From the NCBI GenBank assembly GCA_001829005.1, contig MIAG01000001.1:709007-773006 (forward strand): 64,000 nucleotides of DNA. Direction: 5' to 3'. Made by a program: the position numbers and the translations under genes. The notes under the pieces are model-generated. The model was not told the DNA's origin. It searched no databases and saw nothing but the letters and a program-made list of their open reading frames with translations. Positions 1-12,398 of this stretch are shown here, one piece after another (position 1 is the stretch's first letter; each line of letters begins with the position of its first letter). This DNA comes from Sphingobacteriia bacterium RIFOXYC2_FULL_35_18. Its GTDB lineage: Bacteria > Bacteroidota > Bacteroidia > Chitinophagales > Chitinophagaceae.

Positions 1-762
1 GCTAAGCAGTGGTGTGTACTCTGCTTAATGGTACAGGCTGTTTTATTGGCTGAAGGAATATTGGTTATAACAAATAACAGTTTTTCATTTTCTGAGACAA
101 AGGAAGCATTTGCAAACAATTTTATTTTGGCGCTATACGCTTTATTAATACCATCAATATCTTGGTTTTTGGTAAAGCCTTTGTTAAAAAGATTGCAGGT
201 AGCTAAGTACGAAAAGAGAAGTTATTCAATGCTAAAGTTTAACGATCAAGTATTTTGGTCATTGCTTAAAACTCAGCCATCCATTGTTGATCATTCTACA
301 AGTGAATTGGGTATAACTATTGGTAACCCCAATGCAAAACATACTATTATCAAAGTTTGCAATCCTTATTGTGGCCCTTGCGCAACAGCACATCCTGAGT
401 TAGAGAAAATTATTGAACTAAACCATGATGTAAAAGCACAAATCATTTTTACAGCAACTAATCAGGAGAATGATAGAGGTGCAAAACCAGTTAAACATTT
501 ATTAGCTATTGCTGAAAAAGGCAATGAACATATTACTCATAAAGCATTAGATGATTGGTATTTAGCTAAAGAAAAGAATTATGATGTTTTTGCCAACAAA
601 TACCCAATGAATGCAGAACTAGATAAACAAACAGACAAAATCAATCAAATGAAAGATTGGTGTGAAAAGGTGAAAATCGAATACACTCCAACTATTTTTA
701 TTGATGGTTTTCTATTACCAAAAGGATATCAAATAAAGGACATTAATTATTTTCTTTCATGA
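1..762 (+). CDS. VKOR-thioredoxin fusion protein, C-terminal part (5' end lies outside the window); paralog of 2752..4356
   Basis: Frame 1 is open from nt 1. It starts AKQWCVLCL (the VKOR CXXC helix), followed by one more hydrophobic helix and a thioredoxin/DsbA-like domain with CNPYCGPC. By eye there are about 30 substitutions over about 253 aligned residues against the C-terminus of 2752..4356. Confidence 0.85.
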   Translation, partial: AKQWCVLCLMVQAVLLAEGILVITNNSFSFSETKEAFANNFILALYALLIPSISWFLVKPLLKRLQVAKYEKRSYSMLKFNDQVFWSLLKTQPSIVDHSTSELGITIGNPNAKHTIIKVCNPYCGPCATAHPELEKIIELNHDVKAQIIFTATNQENDRGAKPVKHLLAIAEKGNEHITHKALDDWYLAKEKNYDVFANKYPMNAELDKQTDKINQMKDWCEKVKIEYTPTIFIDGFLLPKGYQIKDINYFLS

Positions 763-885
763 AAAAGAAAAAACATATTTCTTTTCGACTAGTACCCGAA
801 AAGAAAAGCCAAATGGTACTACACTTTATCGCGAATGAGTGGTTTGGCAAGCCAATAATCTGCTGATGCTTAAAGCTGCAGAAAC
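763..885 (+). repeat. Duplicated intergenic element, copy A (between the VKOR-fusion stop and the precursor gene)
   Basis: Aligns with 4357..4478. Two near-identical blocks (cgactagtacccgaaaagaaaNgccaaatggtactacactt and agtggtttggcNagccaataatctgctgatgct) flank a diverged patch. It contains inverted repeats TAGTACC(790..796)/GGTACTA(815..821) and TTGGC-N2-GCCAA (844..855). Confidence 0.5.
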
Positions 886-935
886 TCTTTATGTAACCGC
901 TATTTATAAAATAAAAATAGCATAAAATTTAATTT

Positions 936-1115
936 ATGAAACAGAAAGTCGAAAATTTAGGCTTCCTTTTACCTAAGAATGCTCAGAAGAAAATTTTAGG
1001 TGGGAATATTGAAGATGAAACAACACAATGCTATGAATGTACTGCAGGAGAAAAAGAATGGGGATTCGGTTGCCCTAGTCCATTGAGATCTGATTGTAAA
1101 TGCGAGAAGTGTTAG
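936..1115 (+). CDS. Double-glycine-leader Cys-rich peptide precursor P1 (59 aa), absent from the ORF track
   Basis: Hand translation gives MKQKVENLGFLLPKNAQKKILGG/NIEDETTQCYECTAGEKEWGFGCPSPLRSDCKCEKC*. The 23-aa leader aligns with those of 4507..4731 and 10400..10636. The core has 6 Cys. It occupies the same cassette position as P2. Confidence 0.8.
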   Translation: MKQKVENLGFLLPKNAQKKILGGNIEDETTQCYECTAGEKEWGFGCPSPLRSDCKCEKC

Positions 1116-1139
1116 GGGTTGATTTATAAGAATTTTCAT

Positions 1140-1184
1140 AATCAAAAATGATATAAGTGAAGAATACTTATATCATTTTTGATT
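1140..1184 (+). terminator. 19-bp perfect A/T-rich hairpin directly after precursor P1 (partial terminator or processing site)
   Basis: aatcaaaaatgatataagt-gaagaat-acttatatcatttttgatt. It ends in a T-rich run 14 nt before the ATG of 1199..2266. Confidence 0.5.
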
Positions 1185-1198
1185 TTAAATAAAATTTC

Positions 1199-2266
1199 AT
1201 GAATTTCATTATTGCTTTTTTAATGGTTTTGTTTACTAATTTTTCATTGTACTCACAAACCACAGATATTTCGATAAGTGGTAAAATTAATGGCACATAC
1301 CCTGATAAAATATTTTTATTTTTTGATGGAAATATAAATGCTAAAGATAGTCTAAGTTCAGTAATTGCAAATGGGCACTTCCAGTTTAATCTAAAAACAA
1401 AACTTCCAATATTATGTAGATTACATTTTAGCGAAAACACTAATATAGTTGAATTTTATATCGATAACCCAACTACATTAATTTACTTGAATAGTAAAAT
1501 TGAAACCAATAGTGAGAATAAAACAAAACGTACATATTTTGAACTTGACAGTATTAAGGGATCAGTTATCGAAGTCAATAGGCAGTTATTCGAAAAATCC
1601 TTAGCGAAAGTAGAAACACTTAATATTTCTACTATAGAAAAAAGAAATTTGCATTATAATTTATTAGATAGTTTTATCACAAAAAATCCTAAAAGCAAAC
1701 TTGCACTATACTTTTTGGCAACAAATAAAATTCTTTCTTTAAATCAAATTAACCTTCTAAAATCAAATTTTGATACTAGTCTTTTATCATCTTATGAAGG
1801 ACAAAAACTAAATCGATCAATAATATCGCTATTGCGCTTAAAAAATAGATTGATAGGAGAGCAATTTCACCATGTTAGTCTTCCAGATAAATTTGGAAAA
1901 AAGATTGAAACTTCAATATATGCTGGTAAAATTGTTTTAATAAATTTTTGGGCTTCCTGGTGCGCTCCATGTAGGGAAAAGCATCCAGAAGTAGTCAAAT
2001 TATTTAATTCTTATAAAAGATCTCAATTTGATATTATTGGTATTTCCTTTGATGATAATCTAGAATATTGGAGAGCAGCTGTAGTAAAGGATAAGATAAA
2101 ATGGTTACAGTTAATTGACACGAAATATACATATGGTACACTTTCTTCCTATTATGATATAAAAGGAGTGCCATCAAATATCCTTATTAATAGAGATGGA
2201 AAAATTTTGGGCTTTGATTTAACAAATCAAGAAATCAAAAAATTTACTGATGATAATCTTAAATAA
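1199..2266 (+). CDS. Secreted TlpA/redoxin-like thioredoxin-fold protein with an N-terminal DUF4369-like domain
   Basis: Signal-like N-terminus MNFIIAFLMVLFTNFSLYSQ. The C-terminal thioredoxin fold has NFWASWCAPC and the cis-Pro loop GVPSNILI. Confidence 0.85.
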   Translation: MNFIIAFLMVLFTNFSLYSQTTDISISGKINGTYPDKIFLFFDGNINAKDSLSSVIANGHFQFNLKTKLPILCRLHFSENTNIVEFYIDNPTTLIYLNSKIETNSENKTKRTYFELDSIKGSVIEVNRQLFEKSLAKVETLNISTIEKRNLHYNLLDSFITKNPKSKLALYFLATNKILSLNQINLLKSNFDTSLLSSYEGQKLNRSIISLLRLKNRLIGEQFHHVSLPDKFGKKIETSIYAGKIVLINFWASWCAPCREKHPEVVKLFNSYKRSQFDIIGISFDDNLEYWRAAVVKDKIKWLQLIDTKYTYGTLSSYYDIKGVPSNILINRDGKILGFDLTNQEIKKFTDDNLK

Positions 2267-2423
2267 TAGAACAGAATATTAATAACAAAGTCCTTCTAGT
2301 TAGAACCTAGCGTTTTTGGTTAATACTGAGGTTGAATTGTAAGTCCCCCAAATATTAAACAGTTTTATTTAGAGTGTAGTCATTTTTAGTATGGTTGGAT
2401 TTTTTTAAAATCATATTACTATT

Positions 2424-2577
2424 GCGCCCCCACCTGCCTCTATATGATAAGTAGGTACTATGGTCGTGTGTTAATTTTCAAACATCTGGGTTAAAGTTGA
2501 GTTTTGAAAAACTAATAGAAGAAGCTCCAAAGCCTGTAAATCTTCATTGGGGTTTAAACATTCAATTGTTTAGCAAA
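2424..2577 (+). pseudogene. Decayed remnant of the 5' end (C39 domain) of a second ABC exporter gene
   Basis: Nucleotide similarity to 6180..6405 (tatatgataagtaggtaYtatggtcgtgtg...ttttcaaacatctgggttaaagttRagttttgaaaaa...gaagaagc). There are internal deletions and a frameshift leading to a stop. A short stretch just after it resembles the HlyD 3' end. Confidence 0.7.
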
Positions 2578-2616
2578 TGTTCATTATATGAAATTTAATA
2601 GTTGCAGAATTGCTAG

Positions 2617-2632
2617 GGGGTATTTTTACCCC
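2617..2632. repeat. GGGGTA-TTTT-TACCCC hairpin (variant/inverted copy of the locus-specific hairpin element)
   Basis: It has the same stem as the elements at 2675 and 9743, but the loop is the complement (TTTT versus AAAA). Confidence 0.5.
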
Positions 2633-2674
2633 TTGATTTGATTTTTACATCTGAAAATAGCTTTCAATAATCAT

Positions 2675-2714
2675 CGGGGGGTAAAAATACCCCCCGCTGA
2701 TTTTTTTTATTTTG
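2675..2714 (+). terminator. Rho-independent terminator-like hairpin CGGGGGGTA-AAAA-TACCCCCCG plus T-tract
   Basis: 9-bp G/C-rich stem followed by ctgattttttttatttt. It is nearly identical to the element after the HlyD gene at 9743. Confidence 0.6.
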
Positions 2715-2751
2715 AAAATTATAATTGATGTTTACTGCATAATTAGAAATT

Positions 2752-4356
2752 ATGTTAACTGGTGTTTTATTTAATAGTTTACATGAAAATCAACCATTAA
2801 TTGTTGCCGCTTTATTAAAGGGATTAAAAGTGAACGTAAGCATGGAAACGATTAATGATACATTACAATCGCATCCCGACTATCCAAGCTTTTTATCTAT
2901 TTCAGATTCATTGAATAATTGGAAGGTTGAAAATCTGGTTATTCAAACTTCGGTAGAAAAATTATCAGAGATTCCCACACCATTTATTACAAGCTTTAAA
3001 AAAGGTGTTTTTGTAGGAGTATTAGAAGTTCTAGAAAATGAGCTAGTTATTGTAAACCAACAAGGCAAAAAAGAAACGATTGCTAAAAATGTATTTTTAT
3101 CTCAATGGACTGAAAACTTCTTAGTTGCTGAAGCAAATGAGTTTTCTGGAGAAATCAATTACCAACAAAAGATTAATGCTACTAGTGTAAAAACGGTTGT
3201 TTATAGTTTAATCCCACTAGGAATTTTGACTTCTTTATTCATTCCATACTTGAATGGTTCCATTACCCTTTTGCCCACATTGTATTTATTGGTGAAGTTA
3301 ATAGGTTTAACTGCATCTGTACTACTACTATGGTATGATATAGATAAAGGCAACCCTTTATTAAAACAAATCTGTTCAGGTATACAAAAAGCCAATTGCA
3401 GTGCTGTCTTAAATACCAAAGCTGCATCGCTAGGGGGCATAGTAACGTGGAGTGAAGTTGGCTTTGTATATTTTGCAGGGTCATTATTATTCTCAGCGAC
3501 CTCTGGTATTAGTAAGGTATTGCCTGTTTTAAGTATAATCTCCTTATTAGCCCTGCCTTATATCATTTTCTCTATTTATTACCAGTGGAAAGTAGCCAAG
3601 CAGTGGTGTGTACTCTGCTTAATGGTTCAGGCTGTTTTATTGGCTGAAGGAATATTGGTTATAGCAAATAACAGTTTATCATTTTCTGAGACAACAGCAG
3701 CATTTGCAAACAATTTCATTTTTGCACTTTACGCTTTACTCATTCCCACAATATTTTGGTTTTTATTAAAGCCATTGTTGAAAAGATTACAGATTGCTAA
3801 GTACGAAAAGAGAAGTTATTTAATGCTTAAGTTTAACGATGATGTATTTTGGTCATTGCTTAAAAATCAGCCATCTATTGTTGATCATTCTACAAGTGAA
3901 TTGGGTATAACTATTGGTAACCCCAATGCAAAACATACTATTATCAAAGTTTGCAATCCTTATTGTGGGCCATGTGCAACAGCACATCCTGATATTGAAA
4001 AGATTATTGAGAGTAATCCAGAGGTTAAAGCTCAAATTATTTTTACTACAACAAATCACGAGAATGACCGTGGTGCAAAACCTGTTAAACATTTATTAGC
4101 TGTATCTGAAAAAGGAGATGAAAATCTCACCAAAAATGCGCTTGACGATTGGTATTTGGCTAAAGAAAAAAGTTATGATGTTTTTGCCAACAAATACCCA
4201 ATGAATGGAGAAATAGATAAACAAACGGACAAAATCGACCAAATGAAAGAATGGTGTGAAAAAGTGAAAATTGAATACACTCCAACTATTTTTATTGATG
4301 GTTTTTTATTACCAAAAGGATATCAAATAAAGGACATCAATTATTTTCTTTCATGA
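2752..4356 (+). CDS. Three-domain fusion: non-catalytic C39-like domain + VKOR (vitamin K epoxide reductase family) + thioredoxin/DsbA-like domain
   Basis: The N-terminal ~130 aa align with the C39 domain of 6103..8391 (ISDSLNNWKVENLVIQTSVEKLSEIPTPFITSF vs ISDAAEKIGFQTSGLKLSFEKLIEEAPKPAILHW) but lack the catalytic Cys and His. The VKOR loop Cys pair is CSGIQKANC and the membrane CXXC is WCVLC. The C-terminal domain has CNPYCGPC. Confidence 0.85.
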   Translation: MLTGVLFNSLHENQPLIVAALLKGLKVNVSMETINDTLQSHPDYPSFLSISDSLNNWKVENLVIQTSVEKLSEIPTPFITSFKKGVFVGVLEVLENELVIVNQQGKKETIAKNVFLSQWTENFLVAEANEFSGEINYQQKINATSVKTVVYSLIPLGILTSLFIPYLNGSITLLPTLYLLVKLIGLTASVLLLWYDIDKGNPLLKQICSGIQKANCSAVLNTKAASLGGIVTWSEVGFVYFAGSLLFSATSGISKVLPVLSIISLLALPYIIFSIYYQWKVAKQWCVLCLMVQAVLLAEGILVIANNSLSFSETTAAFANNFIFALYALLIPTIFWFLLKPLLKRLQIAKYEKRSYLMLKFNDDVFWSLLKNQPSIVDHSTSELGITIGNPNAKHTIIKVCNPYCGPCATAHPDIEKIIESNPEVKAQIIFTTTNHENDRGAKPVKHLLAVSEKGDENLTKNALDDWYLAKEKSYDVFANKYPMNGEIDKQTDKIDQMKEWCEKVKIEYTPTIFIDGFLLPKGYQIKDINYFLS

Positions 4357-4478
4357 GAAAGAATAATCATATTTTTTTCGACTAGTACCCGAAAAGAAAT
4401 GCCAAATGGTACTACACTTGGTGATCAACAAGTGGTTTGGCGAGCCAATAATCTGCTGATGCTATAAGCTGCAGAAAC
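4357..4478 (+). repeat. Duplicated intergenic element, copy B
   Basis: Aligns with 763..885. It includes TTGGC-N2-GCCAA at 4437..4448. Confidence 0.5.
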
Positions 4479-4506
4479 ATTATTAATAAATTTAATTTTT
4501 TTAAAA

Positions 4507-4731
4507 ATGAAACTGAAATTCGGAAATTTCGGAACTTTACTCACTAGATCACAAGCGAAAAGTATTATTGGTGGATATATGGTAGAAGATCCTAGCTCAT
4601 GTACTGTAGATTGTACTGGATGTCCGCCATATAAATGTACTTCAAATTGCGAAGCAATGAAGAACGGTGAATCTGTAACTTGTGATGGAGTTACCAAAAA
4701 ATGTAAAGCTTACCCAACATGTTGGGAATAA
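4507..4731 (+). CDS. Double-glycine-leader Cys-rich peptide precursor P2 (74 aa)
   Basis: MKLKFGNFGTLLTRSQAKSIIGG/YMVEDPSSCTVDCTGCPPYKCTSNCEAMKNGESVTCDGVTKKCKAYPTCWE. The leader is 23 aa and the core has 8 Cys. Confidence 0.85.
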   Translation: MKLKFGNFGTLLTRSQAKSIIGGYMVEDPSSCTVDCTGCPPYKCTSNCEAMKNGESVTCDGVTKKCKAYPTCWE

Positions 4732-4735
4732 TTTT

Positions 4736-4766
4736 ATGCCGACTATTTTAGTCGGCATACTTTTTT
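4736..4766 (+). terminator. Rho-independent terminator directly after P2
   Basis: atgccgacta-ttt-tagtcggcat followed by acTTTTTT, 5 nt after the stop codon. Confidence 0.75.
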
Positions 4767-4777
4767 AAAACTTTAGA

Positions 4778-6049
4778 ATGTTTAAAATAGTAATATACTT
4801 TTTAATTTTAACGGGTTTTACTCCTTGCTTCTCACAATTTGATAAGGTGAATCTATCTGTTAAGCCTGGGAAAAATGAATTTGATTTTAGTACTTTCAAT
4901 TTTCATTTATCCAAACAAGATATTAATAGTTTTGTAATCCCTCCTTTAAAGTATCTTTTAATTTTTGATTCTTATACAAACGATAATAAATTATTCTACT
5001 TTAATTACAAGAATGGTATTGTACCTGATTCCATTTTTACATTAATTAAAAGCAAAAGAAGTCTTGATTCTGACGATTTTCTTGTCTTAGATAATGATGA
5101 TATTTTAGAAGTATTAGTTGGCATTGACTCATTAGATAATTTAATAATAATCCCTAATGCTAACAATAATAAATCATTTACTGACGACTCTGTTTATGTC
5201 TTTAAAAGAAGTTTACAACAAACTAATCAGTTTGAAATAAGTAATGTTGAATTTAAGAATATCGATTATCGGATAGGTAATAATAGTTCTAACTTGAAAA
5301 CTTACTATAAATTAAAGATAGAAGTTGATTTTGATAGTTTTGACAAGCTAAAAGTAATGTCAACAAATATTTCTTTTTATGAAGGAGTTATAATGATTGA
5401 TAATAATAACTTTATTTTAAAAATTCAATTAAGTGGAACAGGATTAGATTTTAAATATAAATATGGAATTTACTATAAACTCATAAGCCCAATTTTAAAT
5501 ACTGCTGTAAATTTAGTTCCCGAAAGAGAAATCAAGAAAAGCTCAACATTGGAAAAATATACGTTTACCCTAGATAGTGTAAGTCTTTTTGGTGATGTTG
5601 CTTATGTAAAAGTTAAAAAAAATAATAAAATCTTTAGTGAAACTTCTTTTATAAATAATCTTGAAGGTTTTAATTTATTAAATAATTCAACTTTTAAATT
5701 CCTCAATAATAGTTATTATAAAGTCCTTGACTTTTGGGCTTCTTGGTGCTTACCATGTTTGTCAGACCATAAACTATTAATGAATGATATTTTTAAAATT
5801 CAAGCTAAAAATGTATTATTCTTTGGTGTTATTAACGATGAGAATGATTTAATGAATTCAAAAAAATACTTATTAAATTCAAATTATTTATGGAAAAATT
5901 ATTTTATTAAATCCAAAAAGCATATCGAATATTTTAATGTCAAATCATTTCCAACTTATATTGTTTTATCAAAATTTAATCAAATTATTCTCAGAACTAA
6001 TAGTTATCAAGAATTAATGAATTTCATTAACCAATTAGATGTAAAATAA
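4778..6049 (+). CDS. Secreted protein with a large unknown N-terminal domain and a C-terminal TlpA/redoxin-like thioredoxin fold
   Basis: Signal-like MFKIVIYFLILTGFTPCFSQ. The C-terminal ~110 aa contain DFWASWCLPC and the cis-Pro loop SFPTYIVL. The gene is very A+T rich. Confidence 0.8.
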   Translation: MFKIVIYFLILTGFTPCFSQFDKVNLSVKPGKNEFDFSTFNFHLSKQDINSFVIPPLKYLLIFDSYTNDNKLFYFNYKNGIVPDSIFTLIKSKRSLDSDDFLVLDNDDILEVLVGIDSLDNLIIIPNANNNKSFTDDSVYVFKRSLQQTNQFEISNVEFKNIDYRIGNNSSNLKTYYKLKIEVDFDSFDKLKVMSTNISFYEGVIMIDNNNFILKIQLSGTGLDFKYKYGIYYKLISPILNTAVNLVPEREIKKSSTLEKYTFTLDSVSLFGDVAYVKVKKNNKIFSETSFINNLEGFNLLNNSTFKFLNNSYYKVLDFWASWCLPCLSDHKLLMNDIFKIQAKNVLFFGVINDENDLMNSKKYLLNSNYLWKNYFIKSKKHIEYFNVKSFPTYIVLSKFNQIILRTNSYQELMNFINQLDVK

Positions 6050-6102
6050 TTTTTATTGGACTAATTATGATTAACCGCTGCTGAGATTTTTAGCTCCTTT
6101 TA

Positions 6103-8391
6103 GTGAAAACATATATTAACTCAAGCTTTATTAAACAAAACTTCTTTTTCTACCCTCAACAAAACCAAATGGACTGCGGTCCTACTTGTTTGTATATGAT
6201 AAGTAGGTATTATGGTCGTGTGTTTGCATTAGAGAAGCTAAGGGAGTTAACAGAGATAGGTAAGGAGGGTGTTAATTTATTAGGTATTAGTGATGCTGCT
6301 GAAAAGATAGGTTTTCAAACATCTGGGTTAAAGTTAAGTTTTGAAAAATTAATTGAAGAAGCGCCAAAACCCGCAATACTGCATTGGGGGCAAAACCATT
6401 TCATTGTTTTACCACCACAAAAGAGGGCTTTTTTTTCAAAGCCAAAAAACATAATAATAGCTGATCCCGCTAAAGGGATTATTACCATCAGCAAAGAGCT
6501 GTTCTTACAAAAATGGATAAGTGATAAAAATGAGGATGGGGAGTCTACCGGTATTGCCTTAATTCTAGAGCCTGGACAAAACTTTTATAATGCCAATTAC
6601 GGGCATGATTTTAAAGAGTTAACAAACAACCATGCTAACCAACTTTGGGGTTATATAAAGCCACATAAAAAACTGGTATTCCAACTTTTCTTAGGGGTCA
6701 TGCTGGGTAGTTTATTGCAATTGGTATTTCCTTTTCTCACACAAAGTGTAGTTGATGTTGGTATCAACACTCAAAATATTCAATTTGTATATATTGTTTT
6801 ATTAGCTCAACTGGCTTTGTTTATTGGGCGTTTGGGAGTAGAATTTATTCGCAGTTGGATTTTATACCATATCAGTAGTCGAATCAATATTTCTATTCTT
6901 ACGGGTTTTTTGATAAAGCTGATGAAATTGCCATTGGCTTATTTTGATAGCAAAAAAACAGGGGATATTCTTCAAAGAATGAATGACCATAAACGCATTC
7001 AAAATTTCTTGACTGGAACTTCACTTAGTACTTTGTTTTCTCTATTCAATTTATTGGTTTTTTCTGTTGTGTTGCTTAATTATAGTGTACTCATTTTTGG
7101 TGTTTTTACAGCTGCTAGTGTGCTATACATTTTATGGATTTTAATCTTCTTAAAGAAAAGAAAAGAGCTTGATTACCAGCAGTTTGATATTGCTGCTGCA
7201 GAACAGAGCAGTACCATTCAATTGGTACAAGGTATGCAGGAGATTAAGTTGCATGGTAGTGAAAAACAACAAAGATGGCAATGGGAACATTTACAAGCAT
7301 CACTATTTAGGGTAGGAATGAAAGGGCTTGCATTAAATCAATGGCAACAAGCGGGTGCTTTCTTTATTAACGAGGGCAAAAATATATTCATCACATTTGT
7401 GGCAGCAACAGCAGTGATCCAAGGACAAATAACCCTTGGCGCAATGCTTGCAATTCAATATATCATTGGGCAATTAAACTCCCCAATTGAGCAAATGATT
7501 GGGTTCGTTCAAAATTGGCAATTGGCTAAAATTAGTCTGGAAAGATTGAATGAAATACATCAATTGGCCGATGAAGAACAGTTCAATTTGAACAGTGATG
7601 CTTCTTCAGCCTTGGTTACAGAGTTGCCTCAAAACCGATCTATACACCTTCAAAATATCAGCTTTACCTATCCAGGCGCTGGTAATGAGCCTGTACTTAA
7701 AAATATTTCCATGCAAATACCACAAGGAAAAGTAACAGCGATTGTAGGGTCTAGTGGCAGTGGTAAAACCACCTTACTAAAATTATTGCTCAAATTTTAT
7801 GAAGCGAAGTCTGGGGATATATATATTGGTGATCAGGCAGAATCAGCAGGTTTAAATTTGTCAAATATTAGCCATCGTGCTTGGCGTAAACAGTGTGGTG
7901 TAGTAATGCAAGACAGCTTTATTTTTTCTGATAGTATTGCTAAAAATATAGCTGTTGGGGAAGATTATCCCGATAAGGCAAGGTTAAGATATGCTGCAAA
8001 AATTGCCAATATCACTTCGTTTATCGAAAGTTTACCACTGGGTTATAATACCAAAATTGGTGCAGAAGGCACGGGGGTAAGTGCAGGGCAAAGACAAAGG
8101 ATCTTAATTGCTAGAGCTGTTTACAAAAACCCGGATCTAATTTTATTAGATGAAGCTACCAACGCATTAGATTCTAATAATGAAAGTACTATTTTAAAAA
8201 ACTTAAACTTGTTTTTTGAAGGTAAAACAGTTGTAGTGGTAGCACACCGCTTAAGCACTGTTCGTAATGCTGACCAAATAGTGGTATTACACAATGGGGT
8301 GATTACCGAGCAAGGTACACATGCTAAATTAACAGCAATGAAGGGTGAATATTTTACTTTGGTTAAAAATCAATTAGAATTAGGTGATTAA
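6103..8391 (+). CDS. Peptidase C39 domain-containing bacteriocin-type ABC exporter
   Basis: GTG start. C39 motifs QMDCGPTCLYM and NHFIVL. A six-helix membrane domain. Walker A GSSGSGKTT, signature VSAGQRQR and Walker B LILLDEAT. Confidence 0.93.
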   Translation: MKTYINSSFIKQNFFFYPQQNQMDCGPTCLYMISRYYGRVFALEKLRELTEIGKEGVNLLGISDAAEKIGFQTSGLKLSFEKLIEEAPKPAILHWGQNHFIVLPPQKRAFFSKPKNIIIADPAKGIITISKELFLQKWISDKNEDGESTGIALILEPGQNFYNANYGHDFKELTNNHANQLWGYIKPHKKLVFQLFLGVMLGSLLQLVFPFLTQSVVDVGINTQNIQFVYIVLLAQLALFIGRLGVEFIRSWILYHISSRINISILTGFLIKLMKLPLAYFDSKKTGDILQRMNDHKRIQNFLTGTSLSTLFSLFNLLVFSVVLLNYSVLIFGVFTAASVLYILWILIFLKKRKELDYQQFDIAAAEQSSTIQLVQGMQEIKLHGSEKQQRWQWEHLQASLFRVGMKGLALNQWQQAGAFFINEGKNIFITFVAATAVIQGQITLGAMLAIQYIIGQLNSPIEQMIGFVQNWQLAKISLERLNEIHQLADEEQFNLNSDASSALVTELPQNRSIHLQNISFTYPGAGNEPVLKNISMQIPQGKVTAIVGSSGSGKTTLLKLLLKFYEAKSGDIYIGDQAESAGLNLSNISHRAWRKQCGVVMQDSFIFSDSIAKNIAVGEDYPDKARLRYAAKIANITSFIESLPLGYNTKIGAEGTGVSAGQRQRILIARAVYKNPDLILLDEATNALDSNNESTILKNLNLFFEGKTVVVVAHRLSTVRNADQIVVLHNGVITEQGTHAKLTAMKGEYFTLVKNQLELGD

Positions 8392-8400
8392 AGACGAATT

Positions 8401-9738
8401 ATGCCTCAACAAGAAGAATCATATAGTTTAGATGCAATGCTCGAAGCGGCTAATATTGAACGGTTAGATGAGGCAGATCGTATTTATAGCCATGAGGTTC
8501 GCGAAATCATTAGCAGTAAACCTGTATGGATAGTAAGAAATGGCATTGCAATGTTTTTTGGCATTATTGGTTTGTTATTTACGTTAACTTTTTTTATTCA
8601 ATACCCAGATATCGTTAAAGCACCTGTAAAAATTGTTGGGGATAATTTGCCAAAACAAATTATTAGTAAATCTGAAGGACGAATTGTTTATTTAAATGCA
8701 CTTGAAAATAAAAAAGTAATTGTTGGTGACGTTTTAGCCATTTTACAAAGTAATGCAGATTACAAACAAGTGCTGTTGTTTAAAAAATGGATTGATCAAA
8801 CTGAACTTGATTTAAAAGGAAATAATTGGAATGCGATTAGCCAGTTAGCAACACTCAATCAATTGGGAGATTTACAAAAAAATTATCAAGATATTGCCCA
8901 ACAAATCTATCAACTCTCTTGGGCAAAGACTAAAGGGTACTTTAACCAAAAACGTGATGCCATTGCTCAAGACATTAGGCTGATTAATCTGTCTAAGGAG
9001 AACGCGAATAATCAAAAGCAATTGATTCTTCAAGATTTAGCAATGCAACAAGGAGTATTGGACATTAATGAAAAACTGGCTAATGAAAAAGTGATTGCAC
9101 CGCTTGATTTAATTAAGGATAAATCAACCGTATTATCTAAGAAACAACAATTAGTTCAAGTTGATGCTGCGGATATTAATCAGTCTGCTAATATTGTTGC
9201 CAAACAAAAAGAATTATTGGAAATTGAAAAGCTAAATGCGGATATCCAACAAAACTTTATTGCAGCTCTCTTTAATGCCAAAAGTGCATTGACCGAATGG
9301 TCAAATCGATACATATTAGTTGCCAGTGAAACAGGTACTTTACAATTTGCCAGTTACTTTCAAGAGAATAGTTGGATCAAAACGGGTCAAGAGCTCTTTT
9401 ATATTATTCCGAAACAACCCACCTATTTTGCAGAGCTGATTGCATCCCAACAGAATTTTGGCAAATTAAAGCAAGGTCAACAGGTGAATATTGCACTTAA
9501 TAGTTATCAACGAAATGAATTTGGTGTGTTACAAGGAACTATCATTAATATTCCGCAAGTTCCCTATAAAGACACTAGTTTCTTAATTAAGGTTAAGCTA
9601 ACTAAAGGTTTGCAAACAAATTATCAAAAGCCCATCCATTTTAGTAATAGTTTGACTGGCACTGCAGATGTCATTACAGCGGAAGCTAGTTTAGCCGATC
9701 GGTTATTGTATCAATGGAGGGGTTTGTTTGCAAGATAA
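8401..9738 (+). CDS. HlyD-family secretion adaptor (membrane fusion protein)
   Basis: Single N-terminal TM helix, a long coiled-coil middle region and a C-terminal beta domain. It lies directly after the ABC exporter gene (9-nt gap). Confidence 0.85.
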   Translation: MPQQEESYSLDAMLEAANIERLDEADRIYSHEVREIISSKPVWIVRNGIAMFFGIIGLLFTLTFFIQYPDIVKAPVKIVGDNLPKQIISKSEGRIVYLNALENKKVIVGDVLAILQSNADYKQVLLFKKWIDQTELDLKGNNWNAISQLATLNQLGDLQKNYQDIAQQIYQLSWAKTKGYFNQKRDAIAQDIRLINLSKENANNQKQLILQDLAMQQGVLDINEKLANEKVIAPLDLIKDKSTVLSKKQQLVQVDAADINQSANIVAKQKELLEIEKLNADIQQNFIAALFNAKSALTEWSNRYILVASETGTLQFASYFQENSWIKTGQELFYIIPKQPTYFAELIASQQNFGKLKQGQQVNIALNSYQRNEFGVLQGTIINIPQVPYKDTSFLIKVKLTKGLQTNYQKPIHFSNSLTGTADVITAEASLADRLLYQWRGLFAR

Positions 9739-9742
9739 TTTT

Positions 9743-9774
9743 CGGGGGGTAAAAATACCCCCCGGTATTATTTT
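9743..9774 (+). terminator. Rho-independent terminator CGGGGGGTA-AAAA-TACCCCCCG plus T-rich tail
   Basis: Begins 4 nt after the HlyD stop. It is the same element as at 2675. Confidence 0.7.
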
Positions 9775-9791
9775 GGGCTTGATATTAGAAT

Positions 9792-10382
9792 ATGTATGTT
9801 CACGGTATGAACTTATCTATAAAATGGTATATTTTTTTTATTCTTTGTTCCTTCGTAGTTAAAAATTCTTTTTCTCAACAACAATACGAGAATAAAAAAA
9901 TAAAATTTATTGAATCAGTAACTGAATATTCAACTCTGGAAGAATTTTTGTCAAGACCAATTTATAAAGATAAAATTGTTTACATCGATCTTTGGGGTAC
10001 CACTTGTTTACCTTGCCTCAGAGAATTTAAGTATATGAACACATTAAAGAAAAAGCTAAAAAATTATGATATTAGTTTCCTCTTTATATGTCAGAATACC
10101 CAAGGTGATACCAATAATGAGTGGAAACGAAAATGGAAATCAATAGTGAATAAATATCAGTTAGAAGGTACACATATATATACCTACTTAAAACCCCCTG
10201 ATAAATTCGTGCATGAAAAAATTGACTTTGAGTACATGAAAAAAAATATTAATGAACCGTTAGGTTATGGTATACCAAGGTATCTCATTGCCAAAGGCGG
10301 GAAAATATTAATCTATAATGCATACAAGCCTAGTGATGTTTTTAAATTAACACACCAAATAGATTCATTAAATCTTTTTTAA
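9792..10382 (+). CDS. Secreted small TlpA/redoxin-like thioredoxin-fold protein
   Basis: Signal-like MNLSIKWYIFFILCSFVVKNSFSQ (an alternative start at 9807 is plausible). Active site LWGTTCLPC and cis-Pro loop GIPRYLI. Confidence 0.8.
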   Translation: MYVHGMNLSIKWYIFFILCSFVVKNSFSQQQYENKKIKFIESVTEYSTLEEFLSRPIYKDKIVYIDLWGTTCLPCLREFKYMNTLKKKLKNYDISFLFICQNTQGDTNNEWKRKWKSIVNKYQLEGTHIYTYLKPPDKFVHEKIDFEYMKKNINEPLGYGIPRYLIAKGGKILIYNAYKPSDVFKLTHQIDSLNLF

Positions 10383-10399
10383 AAATCAATTTAAGTAAA

Positions 10400-10636
10400 A
10401 TGAAACAAAACTTATCAAAAATCGGAAATGCCCTTTCAAGGCAAATGCAAAAAAGTATTGTAGGTGGTATTGAGTCTGGTTCATGGTTATGTACATTTAC
10501 ATACACAAATGGCTTAACATTGACTCAGGTTTTTACTGAGCCAAATGGAAATGCAGCTCAATGTGCGGCTGATTATGTTTGTTGGTCTGATAATACTTGC
10601 ACAAATGCTGATTGTGCTGGTTCTGGCGAGTGTTAA
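10400..10636 (+). CDS. Double-glycine-leader Cys-rich peptide precursor P3 (78 aa)
   Basis: MKQNLSKIGNALSRQMQKSIVGG/IESGSWLCTFTYTNGLTLTQVFTEPNGNAAQCAADYVCWSDNTCTNADCAGSGEC. The leader is 23 aa and the core has 6 Cys. Confidence 0.85.
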   Translation: MKQNLSKIGNALSRQMQKSIVGGIESGSWLCTFTYTNGLTLTQVFTEPNGNAAQCAADYVCWSDNTCTNADCAGSGEC

Positions 10637-10660
10637 AATCTAATCATTGTCAAAAAAATA

Positions 10661-11143
10661 ATGCAAACAAAGCAGGGACACCATAATAGTACCTATATTC
10701 GGAAATACTATACTGTAAAATCCCGCAATCGTTTGTGTTGTTTTTTTGAGAAGCGGTATGTTGTCAAAAGCATATTTGCTTTATTGTGCTTCTACTTTTT
10801 TAGTTGCCGTTCAAGCCAATACAAAAAAGACTATATCAATAAAAGAGGTGAACGAGTTTTTACTGATTACAATAATAATCGTACAATTATATTTTCAGGC
10901 GAAGCTGCAAAATTAAATGCCATACTACGGAAAGATCAATTTCTTGATACTGTTTCCTTTCGGGAATTGAAAAAAAGAATCAATGTATACGAACGATTTA
11001 TTGCTTTACATCCTGACTCAATTATTGTAAGACAAACTGACTTTCCTCAGAAATTAACTCAGATTGACTCGTTTTATGTAAACAAGTATAAAATAAAGTA
11101 CTTAAAACGAAATAAGATTACATCTCCAAATATTCATTTCTAA
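10661..11143 (+). CDS. Hypothetical protein (possible membrane-anchored or lipoprotein; start uncertain)
   Basis: 160-aa ORF with a hydrophobic segment SIFALLCFYFFSC near the N-terminus. I recognise no family. Confidence 0.45.
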   Translation: MQTKQGHHNSTYIRKYYTVKSRNRLCCFFEKRYVVKSIFALLCFYFFSCRSSQYKKDYINKRGERVFTDYNNNRTIIFSGEAAKLNAILRKDQFLDTVSFRELKKRINVYERFIALHPDSIIVRQTDFPQKLTQIDSFYVNKYKIKYLKRNKITSPNIHF

Positions 11144-11177
11144 GTTCAAATAAATAGTGCCTGCGTGAAAAACTTTT

Positions 11178-12398
11178 ATGTTAAAAACGATAATTAGCAA
11201 ATTAAGAATTAGTATTATAACTTCAGTTCTCTTGCTAATTAATTCAGTATTCCTTCAATTAGCTGTAAAGGGAAATCCTATCAATGTATACAATAATTCA
11301 CTTTTGAATAAAAATTGTGTATCACAGGATAGTCTTATTTATTTTAAAATCATTGATTCTATTTCAAAGGAAACTATTCCATTTGCAACAATCATTTTTA
11401 TTGAGAATGACACAAATAAAATGTCTATTGTTTCAAATGAAGATGGCTCATTTTCTATTCCCAATTCAAGCTTCCCCAAAAAGGTAAAAATTTCTGCAGT
11501 TGGTTATGAAGAACAACTGTTTTATTTGTTTCATGTTAATCGGTTGCTTTTGAAGCCATTAAAGAGCTTATTACCTGAAATTATCGTTAGAAGTAAGGCA
11601 ATGAAATCAAGGAGCGCAAACGCAATAATTAAACAGGTAGCTAATCGCTTTGAGGATAACTATGGCAATTTTTCTTTTAGTCAAAATTTAAAATTTTCCT
11701 CAGTAATTTATAATTACGACACTTTAAAAGAAAAGGCTGAAGAATTTGTAAAGGTATATTATCGAAATGCTGATAAAAGCATGAAATCTCCAAATTGGAT
11801 TAAAGACACTTTATATCAGGATAAACTTTTCACCAATTTTATTGGAGTTTCCCGATTATGTACAGGTGATATTATTCCATGGTTTGATATGCTGCGAAAA
11901 GGGTTGCCAATTGACGGAAATAATAATAAAGGATTAGACTTTAAACTTATTTCCAAATACAAGGATGAAAAATATGGTCTTGTTTATATTGTAAGTTTCA
12001 TGCCAAATAAATCTTTTAAAGATTCATTTTTAGGTCGAACTGTTGGAGGATTAGCAAGAGGATACCTGAAAGGAGAAATCAGGATAAGAGAATTAGATTA
12101 TTCAATTATTAGATTGAAGTATGTCTGGGAAATGAAAGTTGAATCTCTCAATAGAGGTACAACCAATTTATTTCATACTAAAACATGGAAAGCAAATCGT
12201 GTTACAAAAATGATATCAGATAAAATATTTTACAAGTATGATTATATGTATTATAAGGATGTTCATACTGGTAAATACTTTATTGACTCAATCAATGCGG
12301 AATGCTTTAATTCAGGATATCAAATCGAAACTAATCGCAACTTACTTTTAAACATAAAATTTAATGTTAGTAATAATGGAATTGAGATAGATAAATAA
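11178..12398 (+). CDS. Hypothetical secreted/membrane protein with a carboxypeptidase-regulatory-like (CarboxypepD_reg) beta-sandwich domain
   Basis: N-terminal hydrophobic helix. The segment FKIIDSISKETIPFATIIF...DGSFSIP...ISAVGYEE is typical of CarboxypepD_reg domains. Confidence 0.6.
   Translation: MLKTIISKLRISIITSVLLLINSVFLQLAVKGNPINVYNNSLLNKNCVSQDSLIYFKIIDSISKETIPFATIIFIENDTNKMSIVSNEDGSFSIPNSSFPKKVKISAVGYEEQLFYLFHVNRLLLKPLKSLLPEIIVRSKAMKSRSANAIIKQVANRFEDNYGNFSFSQNLKFSSVIYNYDTLKEKAEEFVKVYYRNADKSMKSPNWIKDTLYQDKLFTNFIGVSRLCTGDIIPWFDMLRKGLPIDGNNNKGLDFKLISKYKDEKYGLVYIVSFMPNKSFKDSFLGRTVGGLARGYLKGEIRIRELDYSIIRLKYVWEMKVESLNRGTTNLFHTKTWKANRVTKMISDKIFYKYDYMYYKDVHTGKYFIDSINAECFNSGYQIETNRNLLLNIKFNVSNNGIEIDK

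Follow-up and report, generated by a model that had tools for sequence, protein, structure and literature searches.

In the window, i.e., the whole stretch of 64,000 nucleotides analysed here from Sphingobacteriia bacterium RIFOXYC2_FULL_35_18 (contig MIAG01000001.1, positions 709,007 to 773,006 of the forward strand), the first 12 kb are made up of tandem cassettes, in which a gene for a fusion protein with C39-like, VKOR and thioredoxin domains, a small precursor gene and a gene for a TlpA-like oxidoreductase follow one another, a peptidase-containing ABC transporter (PCAT) and an HlyD adaptor being encoded in the same array. The subject here is the precursor gene of the first cassette, called P1, the two other precursor genes of the array being called P2 and P3. 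P1 is probably a functional gene of Sediminibacterium (Chitinophagaceae, Bacteroidota) for the precursor of a secreted peptide, which would most likely be a bacteriocin made by the pathway encoded at this locus. As judged from the sequence, the gene is conserved and under selection at the protein level, its leader is typical of its family, and it belongs to a conserved module composed of an RNA motif, the precursor gene, a hairpin and a TlpA-like gene.

The open reading frame (ORF) of P1 runs on the + strand from ATG 936 to TAG 1115 and encodes 59 aa, namely MKQKVENLGFLLPKNAQKKILGG followed by NIEDETTQCYECTAGEKEWGFGCPSPLRSDCKCEKC, in two parts:

936..1004, + strand: P1 leader, 23 codons ending in Gly-Gly (leader profile aligned over positions 1-23, E = 2e-7)
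1005..1115, + strand: P1 core, 36 codons with 6 Cys, plus the TAG stop (delimited by translation and by selection on residues 32-59)

Translation bears out what the initial annotation had described, i.e., a 180-nt ORF from this ATG encoding 59 aa and closing with a 36-aa core with 6 Cys, which occupy positions 9, 12, 23, 31, 33, and 36 of the core. As had been presumed, P1 is missing from the ORF track because of a size cut-off, the default minimum of the ORF lister being 60 aa. At this composition, the chance of 59 codons free of stops is about 0.026. With three disulfides, the predicted product has a monoisotopic mass of 4052.61 Da, or 4058.66 Da in the reduced form, a pI of 4.4 and a net charge of about -4. 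The predicted mature peptides of P1, P2, and P3 are all acidic, with a pI of 4.0-4.9 and a net charge of -2 to -6, whereas typical bacteriocins are cationic.

Double-glycine leaders are about 15-30 aa long, end in GG, GA or GS directly before the core and keep hydrophobic residues at positions -4, -7, -12, and -15 from the cleavage site. The P1 leader, predicted to be helical with low confidence, is hydrophobic at -4 (Ile) and -12 (Leu) but has Gln at -7 (next to Ala at -8) and Gly at -15 (flanked by Phe at -14 and Leu at -16). The likeness to P2 and P3 that had been claimed initially is found again in the translations, where all three leaders are 23 aa long and have M1, K2, G9, L12, K18, I20, G22, and G23 in common.

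That P1 is a real precursor gene of the P2/P3 leader family, as first proposed from this likeness, is now supported by an independent hidden Markov model (HMM) of the leader. Relatives of the fusion protein were scanned with one genome per species, giving 78 loci with fusions 40-92% identical. Downstream sequence suffices in 70 of these loci, and in 54 of the 70, from many genera, the fusion gene is followed by a small ORF whose leader ends in GG or AG and whose core is Cys-rich. The leader HMM was built from 32 leaders of other genera, drawn only from loci with a fusion at most 69% identical to the window copy. Against the 1235 stop-to-stop frames of the window, it retrieves P2 (E = 4e-9), P1 (E = 2e-7), and P3 (E = 1e-6), each aligned from Met1 through the GG, the next frame scoring E = 2.1; likewise, only P1, P2, and P3 appeared genuine in a pattern scan of ATG-initiated frames of 30-130 aa over the 64-kb window. 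P1 has the features of this family, namely the leader MK.K..N.G..LSR...K.I.GG, a Cys-rich core, a fusion gene upstream and the RNA motif R1 before it. A profile of the 32 full precursors finds at least 810 protein clusters at E <= 0.01 among 5.8 billion sequences; the best 120 clusters listed are 58-104 aa long, none has a Pfam domain, and they are named "hypothetical protein" except for one "natural product precursor" and two apparent mis-annotations. The clusters of precursors and of fusions come mostly from Chitinophagaceae and their relatives, in soil and fresh water. The family cores inspected are all Cys-rich with many different Cys frameworks, the Cys count being even in P1, P2, P3, and most others. 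As far as profile searches tell, the precursor family is large and has no curated model that these precursors reach.

At the DNA level, P1 behaves as the initial annotation expected of a coding sequence (CDS), orthologous loci showing neither frameshift nor premature stop: 8 distinct alleles all keep the 59 codons and the TAG, with 0 indels. In the Cys-rich part (residues 32-59), the proportion of synonymous differences (pS) is 0.13-0.37 vs. 0.015-0.044 for the non-synonymous ones (pN), i.e., a dN/dS of 0.03-0.3 (Fisher p of 1e-4 to 4e-3 from four allele pairs, which are not independent), and by these substitutions this part of P1 is under purifying selection. The residues between the GG and the first Cys (24-31) are hypervariable with dN > dS, and the leader is intermediate. 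The six Cys are retained in all alleles except those of one decaying lineage. The noncoding flanks of P1 are often more conserved than the CDS (L003, L012, and L017), for instance with 109/110 identical upstream bases vs. 158/177 in the CDS, which suggests diversification of the cargo, or recombination, within conserved cassette borders.

A chance or noncoding frame, whose conservation would stem from RNA or DNA rather than from protein, has to be considered since the ORF is short, lies between two strongly structured nucleic-acid elements and has flanks conserved at least as well as itself. This explanation is scarcely credible given the intact frame in the 8 alleles, the synonymous excess in residues 32-59, the leader match that spans exactly Met1 to Gly23 and the six Cys kept in all alleles but the decaying lineage; moreover, the covariance model of the upstream RNA stops 51 nt before the ATG.

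The gene had also been called hidden and likely to be missed by automated annotation, which does not hold. The exact 59-aa protein is deposited at NCBI (OHC86580.1 and OHC88605.1, both named "hypothetical protein" of Sphingobacteriia bacterium RIFOXY...), in MGnify and in IMG, and was seen on 21 contigs; variants with one or two residue changes are in RefSeq (WP_026750414.1 and WP_324485563.1), in Sediminibacterium, on 56 and 41 contigs, again as "hypothetical protein." In every related contig fetched, P1 is called, either with 59 aa or, where Val5 is changed to Met, with 55 aa from this internal Met. What annotation misses is the function of P1, not the gene. The relatives found in a homology search are all at least 80% identical and all in Sediminibacterium-like contigs, and a metagenome scan gave at least one locus. 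Five cluster proteins (P0002, P0006, P0011, P0013, and P0014) extend P1 to 71 aa by reading the TAG as Q or L. Read-through alleles were rejected as their origin, Q and L both occurring with the same core and every fetched DNA allele having TAG; the most likely source of these versions is gene calling with alternative genetic codes.

Two comparisons of the core may be mentioned. The sole match of P1 to a solved structure, the fungal defensin micasin (2LR5), is at chance level (E = 2.8) and was rejected. A Ferruginibacter peptide (ORF downstream in L095:5671-5788, also found as P0299) ends in ...GFGTCPGDPGGRCTCDEKKC where P1 ends in ...GFGCPSPLRSDCKCEKC; the two have GFG(T)CP...C.C..K(K)C in common at an E of about 6, which is not significant, and this peptide may be a distant relative of the P1 core.

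The position of P1 in its cassette is as described initially, i.e., after a VKOR fusion gene and a duplicated intergenic element, and before a hairpin and a TlpA-like gene. Cassette 1 covers 1-2266 and cassette 2, with the same gene order, 2752..6049, followed by the transport genes and P3:

1..762, + strand: 3' part of the C39-like/VKOR/thioredoxin fusion gene of cassette 1, with its 5' end outside the window (matching residues 291-534 of the 2752..4356 copy with 87% identity over 244 aa; direct repeat D1)
775..885, + strand: first copy of the RNA motif (three hairpins, one pseudoknot), with its end 51 nt ahead of the P1 ATG (covariance model R1, 130 bits)
897..921, + strand: fourth small hairpin (GCTATTT...AAATAGC) between the motif and the P1 ATG (94% paired, with 2 compensatory pairs among loci of the Sediminibacterium group)
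1140..1184, + strand: hairpin of 20 bp, rich in A+U, separating P1 from the TlpA-like gene (centroid -20.8 kcal/mol, z = -5.1, 0/200 shuffles fold as well; repeat I6)
1199..2266, + strand: TlpA-like thiol-disulfide oxidoreductase 1 (DUF4369 and Thioredoxin_8, WCAPC, signal-peptide-like N-terminus)
2423..2559, + strand: remnant of the 5' end of a PCAT gene, a pseudogene fragment (direct repeats D3 and D5, 84-85% identical to 6175-6396)
2752..4356, + strand: full C39-like/VKOR/thioredoxin fusion gene of cassette 2 (Pfam Peptidase_C39, VKOR, and Thioredoxin_4 above gathering scores)
4369..4478, + strand: RNA motif copy 2 (R1, 123 bits)
4507..4731, + strand: P2 precursor, 74 aa with 8 Cys in the core (leader HMM, E = 4e-9)
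4735..4759, + strand: terminator-like hairpin after P2 (z = -6.2)
4778..6049, + strand: TlpA-like oxidoreductase 2, with no relation to oxidoreductase 1 beyond the WCxxC motif
6103..8391, + strand: PCAT with the catalytic Cys motif QMDCG (QMDCGPTC) (TIGR01193 and TIGR03796 at E 1e-115 to 1e-128)
8401..9738, + strand: HlyD-family periplasmic adaptor (TIGR01843, E = 1e-19)
9792..10382, + strand: TlpA-like oxidoreductase 3
10400..10636, + strand: P3 precursor, 78 aa with 6 Cys in the core and no RNA motif upstream (leader HMM, E = 1e-6)

The TlpA-like gene adjoins P1 in all related contigs. Since the two fusion copies are 87% identical while TlpA-like proteins 1 and 2 have only the WCxxC motif in common, the fusion looks generic and the TlpA-like partner peptide-specific. 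The hairpin at 1140..1184 may act as a partial terminator or 3' stabiliser raising the level of precursor mRNA over that of enzyme mRNA, a form of control common in bacteriocin operons. The PCAT is named "peptidase domain-containing ABC transporter" by NCBI. Longer PCAT fragments occur in L007, L009, and L017 at the position matching 2423-2559, which suggests that the array grew by duplication of whole units. Near-identical G-rich terminator hairpins (CGGGGGGTAAAAATACCCCCCG and a T run) mark unit borders at 2675-2696 and 9742-9765, and the same hairpin also precedes the start region of the fusion gene in L008, L012, and L020. In L012, P1 lacks an upstream fusion gene by an internal deletion that left the start and the end of the fusion. 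A conserved ORF of 130-160 aa with a lipoprotein-like N-terminus (FYFFSC or FLTFSC) lies directly 3' of a precursor gene at 10661-11143 (+ strand) and in L008:3548-3940, with no Pfam match; it could encode an immunity or accessory protein. Related loci begin with a gene for a LuxR/GerE-type response regulator. Sediminibacterium sp. C3 and S. salmoneum NBRC 103935 are among the strains with a related locus. A sigma-70 promoter scan was uninformative, with 59 sites found for 59 expected. Beyond about 12.4 kb, the window holds housekeeping genes (MetH, RecR, and others).

In the pathway proposed for P1, where cleavage site, disulfide formation, export and antibacterial activity are all predicted features, the 23-aa leader would be recognised by the C39 peptidase domain of the PCAT at 6103..8391, which would cut after Gly22-Gly23 and, jointly with the HlyD adaptor (8401..9738), export the 36-aa core. 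The six Cys would be paired into three disulfides by the redox proteins of the cassette, the upstream fusion serving as a quinone-linked oxidase and the TlpA-like protein as a specific isomerase, reductase or helper. The P1 peptide would then be one of several bacteriocins from a multi-cassette locus, in the manner of the bacteroidetocins discussed below. Compared with double-glycine class II bacteriocins and other PCAT substrates (PCAT1, 4RY2), P1 is alike in its short GG leader and in the co-located C39-peptidase exporter with a catalytic Cys; it differs in Gln at -7 and Gly at -15 and in its anionic, Cys-rich and lineage-specific core.

Instead of a peptide with disulfides only, P1 might give rise to a more heavily modified ribosomally synthesised and post-translationally modified peptide (RiPP), e.g., a lanthipeptide or radical-SAM product, with its enzymes encoded elsewhere. 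Relatives of P1 have sub-threshold matches to TIGR04149, a model for the leader of radical-SAM-modified RiPPs, and to lanthipeptide leader models. Relatives also match NF047798, NF047792, and PF10439 below threshold (E 3e-4 to 0.2 for the leader models), and P3 reaches PF14406 (Bacteroid_pep) at E 0.34. The curated leader families of Bacteroidota, namely TIGR04149 (GG_sam_targ_CFB), NF047798 (leader_Chryseo), NF047792 (CCPGW), and PF14406, resemble the relatives of P1 in their ...LSRxEMKxIxGG consensus. All these matches fall below the curated cut-offs, though, and P1 itself has none; no radical-SAM, lanthipeptide (LanB/C/M) or YcaO gene was found in the locus, in its flanks or in the related loci listed, nor is there a radical-SAM or ATP-grasp partner gene here, while the co-occurring accessory genes all encode thiol-disulfide enzymes, which makes a heavily modified product very improbable.

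The closest characterised system is that of the bacteroidetocins, a group marked by the killing of Bacteroidales through BamA. P1 has in common with it a GG leader, an even Cys count, the gene order and the lack of a recognisable immunity gene. Bacteroidetocins have been proposed as class IIf bacteriocins of Bacteroidales (Coyne et al., 2019; PMC6671954), encoded at loci with a five-TM (transmembrane) membrane protein, a GG-leader peptide with 4 Cys, a thiol oxidoreductase and a PCAT, where both accessory genes are needed for activity and an immunity gene is lacking (PMC6671954). Their leader is 15-16 aa long and the mature peptide 42-48 aa, typically with 4 similarly placed Cys (PMC6671954). 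With its 23-aa leader, 36-aa core and 6 Cys, P1 falls outside these limits of size and Cys count, as compared by description. In addition, only the P1 locus has a three-domain fusion as the membrane protein, an HlyD adaptor, tandem cassettes and a structured RNA before the peptide gene. By these traits, P1 is a GG-leader peptide of the Bacteroidota, predicted to be disulfide-bonded and otherwise unmodified, and not a bacteroidetocin.

Following the same processing and export, the P1 peptide might have a role other than that of a toxin, such as signalling (as a pheromone or in quorum sensing), metal binding or some other effector function outside the cell. Room for such a role is left by the negative charge together with the missing immunity gene: the cores of P1, P2, and P3 are all anionic (pI 4.0-4.9), no immunity gene was recognised, and a response regulator gene of LuxR/GerE type stands at the start of related loci. 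Conversely, several hypervariable cores per locus within conserved flanks, a CDS divergence above that of the flanks and the many Cys frameworks are the usual picture of competition toxins, and the sole characterised system with this gene order makes toxins, also without an immunity gene (PMC6671954). On balance, a non-toxin role is judged unlikely, and a bacteriocin remains the preferred reading.

Several observations weigh against this preferred reading. In Pfam and NCBIfam, no model matches P1 or P2 at E <= 1, and among about 200 family peptides searched, none from outside Sediminibacterium is significantly related to the P1 core. AlphaFold2 on 8 sequences of P1 gives a pLDDT of 47.5, too low for a predicted fold. 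The P1 core is anionic, unlike most pore-forming bacteriocins, and no immunity gene is evident at the locus. Export by PCAT and HlyD across both membranes would leave the access of a periplasmic TlpA-like protein to the peptide unexplained. Finally, in alleles L002-L005 (L002:466-642), the GG is changed to DG and the first Cys (Cys32) to Arg; L002 also has an altered P1 start codon, and its adjoining TlpA-like gene is cut to 104 aa. By these changes, P1 in L002-L005 looks like a decaying copy, with the precursor and its TlpA-like partner decaying together in L002.

The fusion protein encoded upstream of the precursors is a family in its own right, with at least 1578 clusters, whose members are named "vitamin K epoxide reductase family protein" or "thioredoxin domain-containing protein" by NCBI. 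On the full copy (2752..4356), Pfam finds Peptidase_C39 (PF03412) at 34 bits (cut-off 22), VKOR (PF07884) at 52.3 bits (cut-off 27.5) and Thioredoxin_4 at 42 bits. Matches of the family profile to PCAT1 chains cover the peptidase domain in its C-terminal half and extend into transmembrane segment 1. The C39-like domain has 0 Cys in residues 1-150, and none is conserved there in 15 homologues; in the absence of a catalytic Cys, this N-terminal domain cannot be a peptidase. Exporters of the HlyB type likewise have a catalytically dead C39-like domain, which binds the substrate, and the N-terminal domain of the fusion resembles it in lacking the catalytic Cys. In the VKOR part, C208 and C216 (loop pair) and C286 and C289 (CxxC in the last core helix) are invariant in the 15 homologues; the C-terminal thioredoxin-like domain has CGPC, and there is an extra transmembrane helix. 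By sequence search, the transmembrane/VKOR stretch gave no solved VKOR structure. The VKOR-thioredoxin of Synechococcus (PDB 3KP9, 4NV2, 4NV5, and 4NV6) is like the fusion in its VKOR core, loop Cys pair, CxxC, extra transmembrane helix and thioredoxin-like domain, whereas the N-terminal C39-like domain, the sixth hydrophobic segment and the reversed loop charge are particular to the fusion. No paper on a VKOR/C39 fusion architecture was found in a literature search.

As regards topology, hydropathy averaged over 108 fusion homologues shows six hydrophobic segments, which places the C39-like domain, the loop Cys pair, the CxxC and the thioredoxin domain all on the same side of the membrane. 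On this side, the membrane-flanking segments contain a mean of 10.4 Lys + Arg (15.0 with the long loop) vs. 0.59 on the other side, with the same bias in 108/108 homologues. The short loops of human VKORC1 and of Synechococcus VKOR have the reverse charge bias, RTRWAS and VKRWRW being cytoplasmic, and VLYDF and RQF lying before the CxxC. Applying the positive-inside rule to these Lys + Arg counts, the redox sites of the fusion would face the cytoplasm, i.e., this heuristic predicts an inverted VKOR, unlike the characterised VKORs. Naturally and artificially inverted forms of VKOR and DsbB have reportedly been described by Hatahet and Ruddock. Against an inverted topology, the signal peptides borne by the TlpA-like partners argue for some periplasmic redox chemistry. 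If the fusion does face the cytoplasm, its leader-binding-type domain would be placed where leaders exist, and disulfides could form before export.

The second element particular to this family is the structured RNA ahead of the precursor genes. The intergenic element duplicated between the cassettes (779-885 vs. 4372-4478) is 88% identical and is kept in other loci despite differing cores. A structure drawn by hand, comprising a pseudoknot and three hairpins, is 94% paired over 13 MAFFT-aligned sequences, with 17 pairs changed on both sides vs. 5.6 in shuffles and 2-6 when the structure is slid. From the three hairpins, leaving the pseudoknot out, the covariance model R1 was made; it has 63 matches at E < 1e-5, spread over the window and 43 fetched loci (44 sources in total) and always on the gene strand, 61 of these copies being beyond the window in L008-L095, and they include genera with fusions only 40-47% identical. 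On the R1 alignment, 95.8% of the cells are paired, and 31 of the 36 pairs are changed on both sides (404 cells vs. 114 shuffled and 30-59 slid). The pseudoknot (TAGTNCC/GGNACTA) covaries on this same alignment, with AU 31, UA 27, and GC 1 at one pair, and UA 54 and CG 7 at another. Using an independent MAFFT alignment of 23 diverse copies, RNAalifold finds hairpins 1 and 2 again, as well as the inner helix of hairpin 3, with compensatory change in 18 of 25 pairs. No family of Rfam 15 matches window positions 1-12000 or six distant loci, and a literature search gave nothing relevant on an RNA motif linked to Bacteroidetes bacteriocins. A hammerhead-like CUGAUG...GAAAC in hairpin 3 was rejected, with no Rfam ribozyme model matching. 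By comparative analysis, the motif is a well-supported new class of structured RNA tied to precursor genes.

The tie to the precursor genes is seen in 58 of the 63 instances, where the motif is followed at a distance of 23-62 nt (median 34) by the start of an ORF with a match to the leader HMM; of the 5 exceptions, two have precursor genes in visible decay, and at a third the sequence available downstream is too short. In distant loci, the last codons of the fusion gene (YFLxE) form the 5' strand of hairpin 1, and the fusion stop codon lies in the loop, which places the motif inside the operon transcript. Of 40 distinct apical loops of hairpin 2, 26 contain a perfect palindrome of 6 nt, nine different palindromes being represented, vs. 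a mean of 4.3 and a maximum of 14 in shuffles; in the window, these loops are at 827-836 (TATCGCGAAT) and at about 4421-4430 (GGTGATCAAC). The dimerisation-initiation kissing loop of HIV-1 is similar in its 6-nt palindrome, in its apical loop of about 10 nt and in keeping palindromy as the sequence changes; the motif described here differs in being a bacterial mRNA leader with three hairpins and a pseudoknot, its dimerisation being only presumed. The palindromes suggest a kissing-loop dimer or a dimeric protein partner. For the whole motif, our best guess is a cis-acting control of the processing, stability or translation of the precursor mRNA, a role as single-stranded DNA in cassette recombination being the weaker alternative.

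Putting the fusion and the RNA together, a leader-guided maturation can be offered tentatively, being rather doubtful as a whole: the dead C39-like domain would bind the GG leader, the cytoplasm-facing VKOR/thioredoxin part would set the three disulfides before cleavage and export, and the pseudoknot RNA with its kissing-type loop would control the stability, translation or dimerisation of the mRNA.

Taken alone, P1 is an ordinary small gene that was already deposited, for which a predicted role is gained as the precursor of a secreted, disulfide-rich, bacteriocin-like peptide. With the families considered, the precursors and fusions amount to a reservoir of diverse Cys-knotted peptides, nearly all named members being "hypothetical protein." The fusion joins a domain of the leader-recognition type to a quinone-linked disulfide generator and, if it faces the cytoplasm as predicted, would represent a natural intracellular route to disulfide-rich peptides, with relevance to RiPP enzymology and peptide production. 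As for the RNA motif, it provides a testable cis-regulatory element in a phylum with poorly understood translation signals. It is these family-wide features, i.e., the fusion with its predicted inverted topology and the new RNA motif, that would be of specialist interest.

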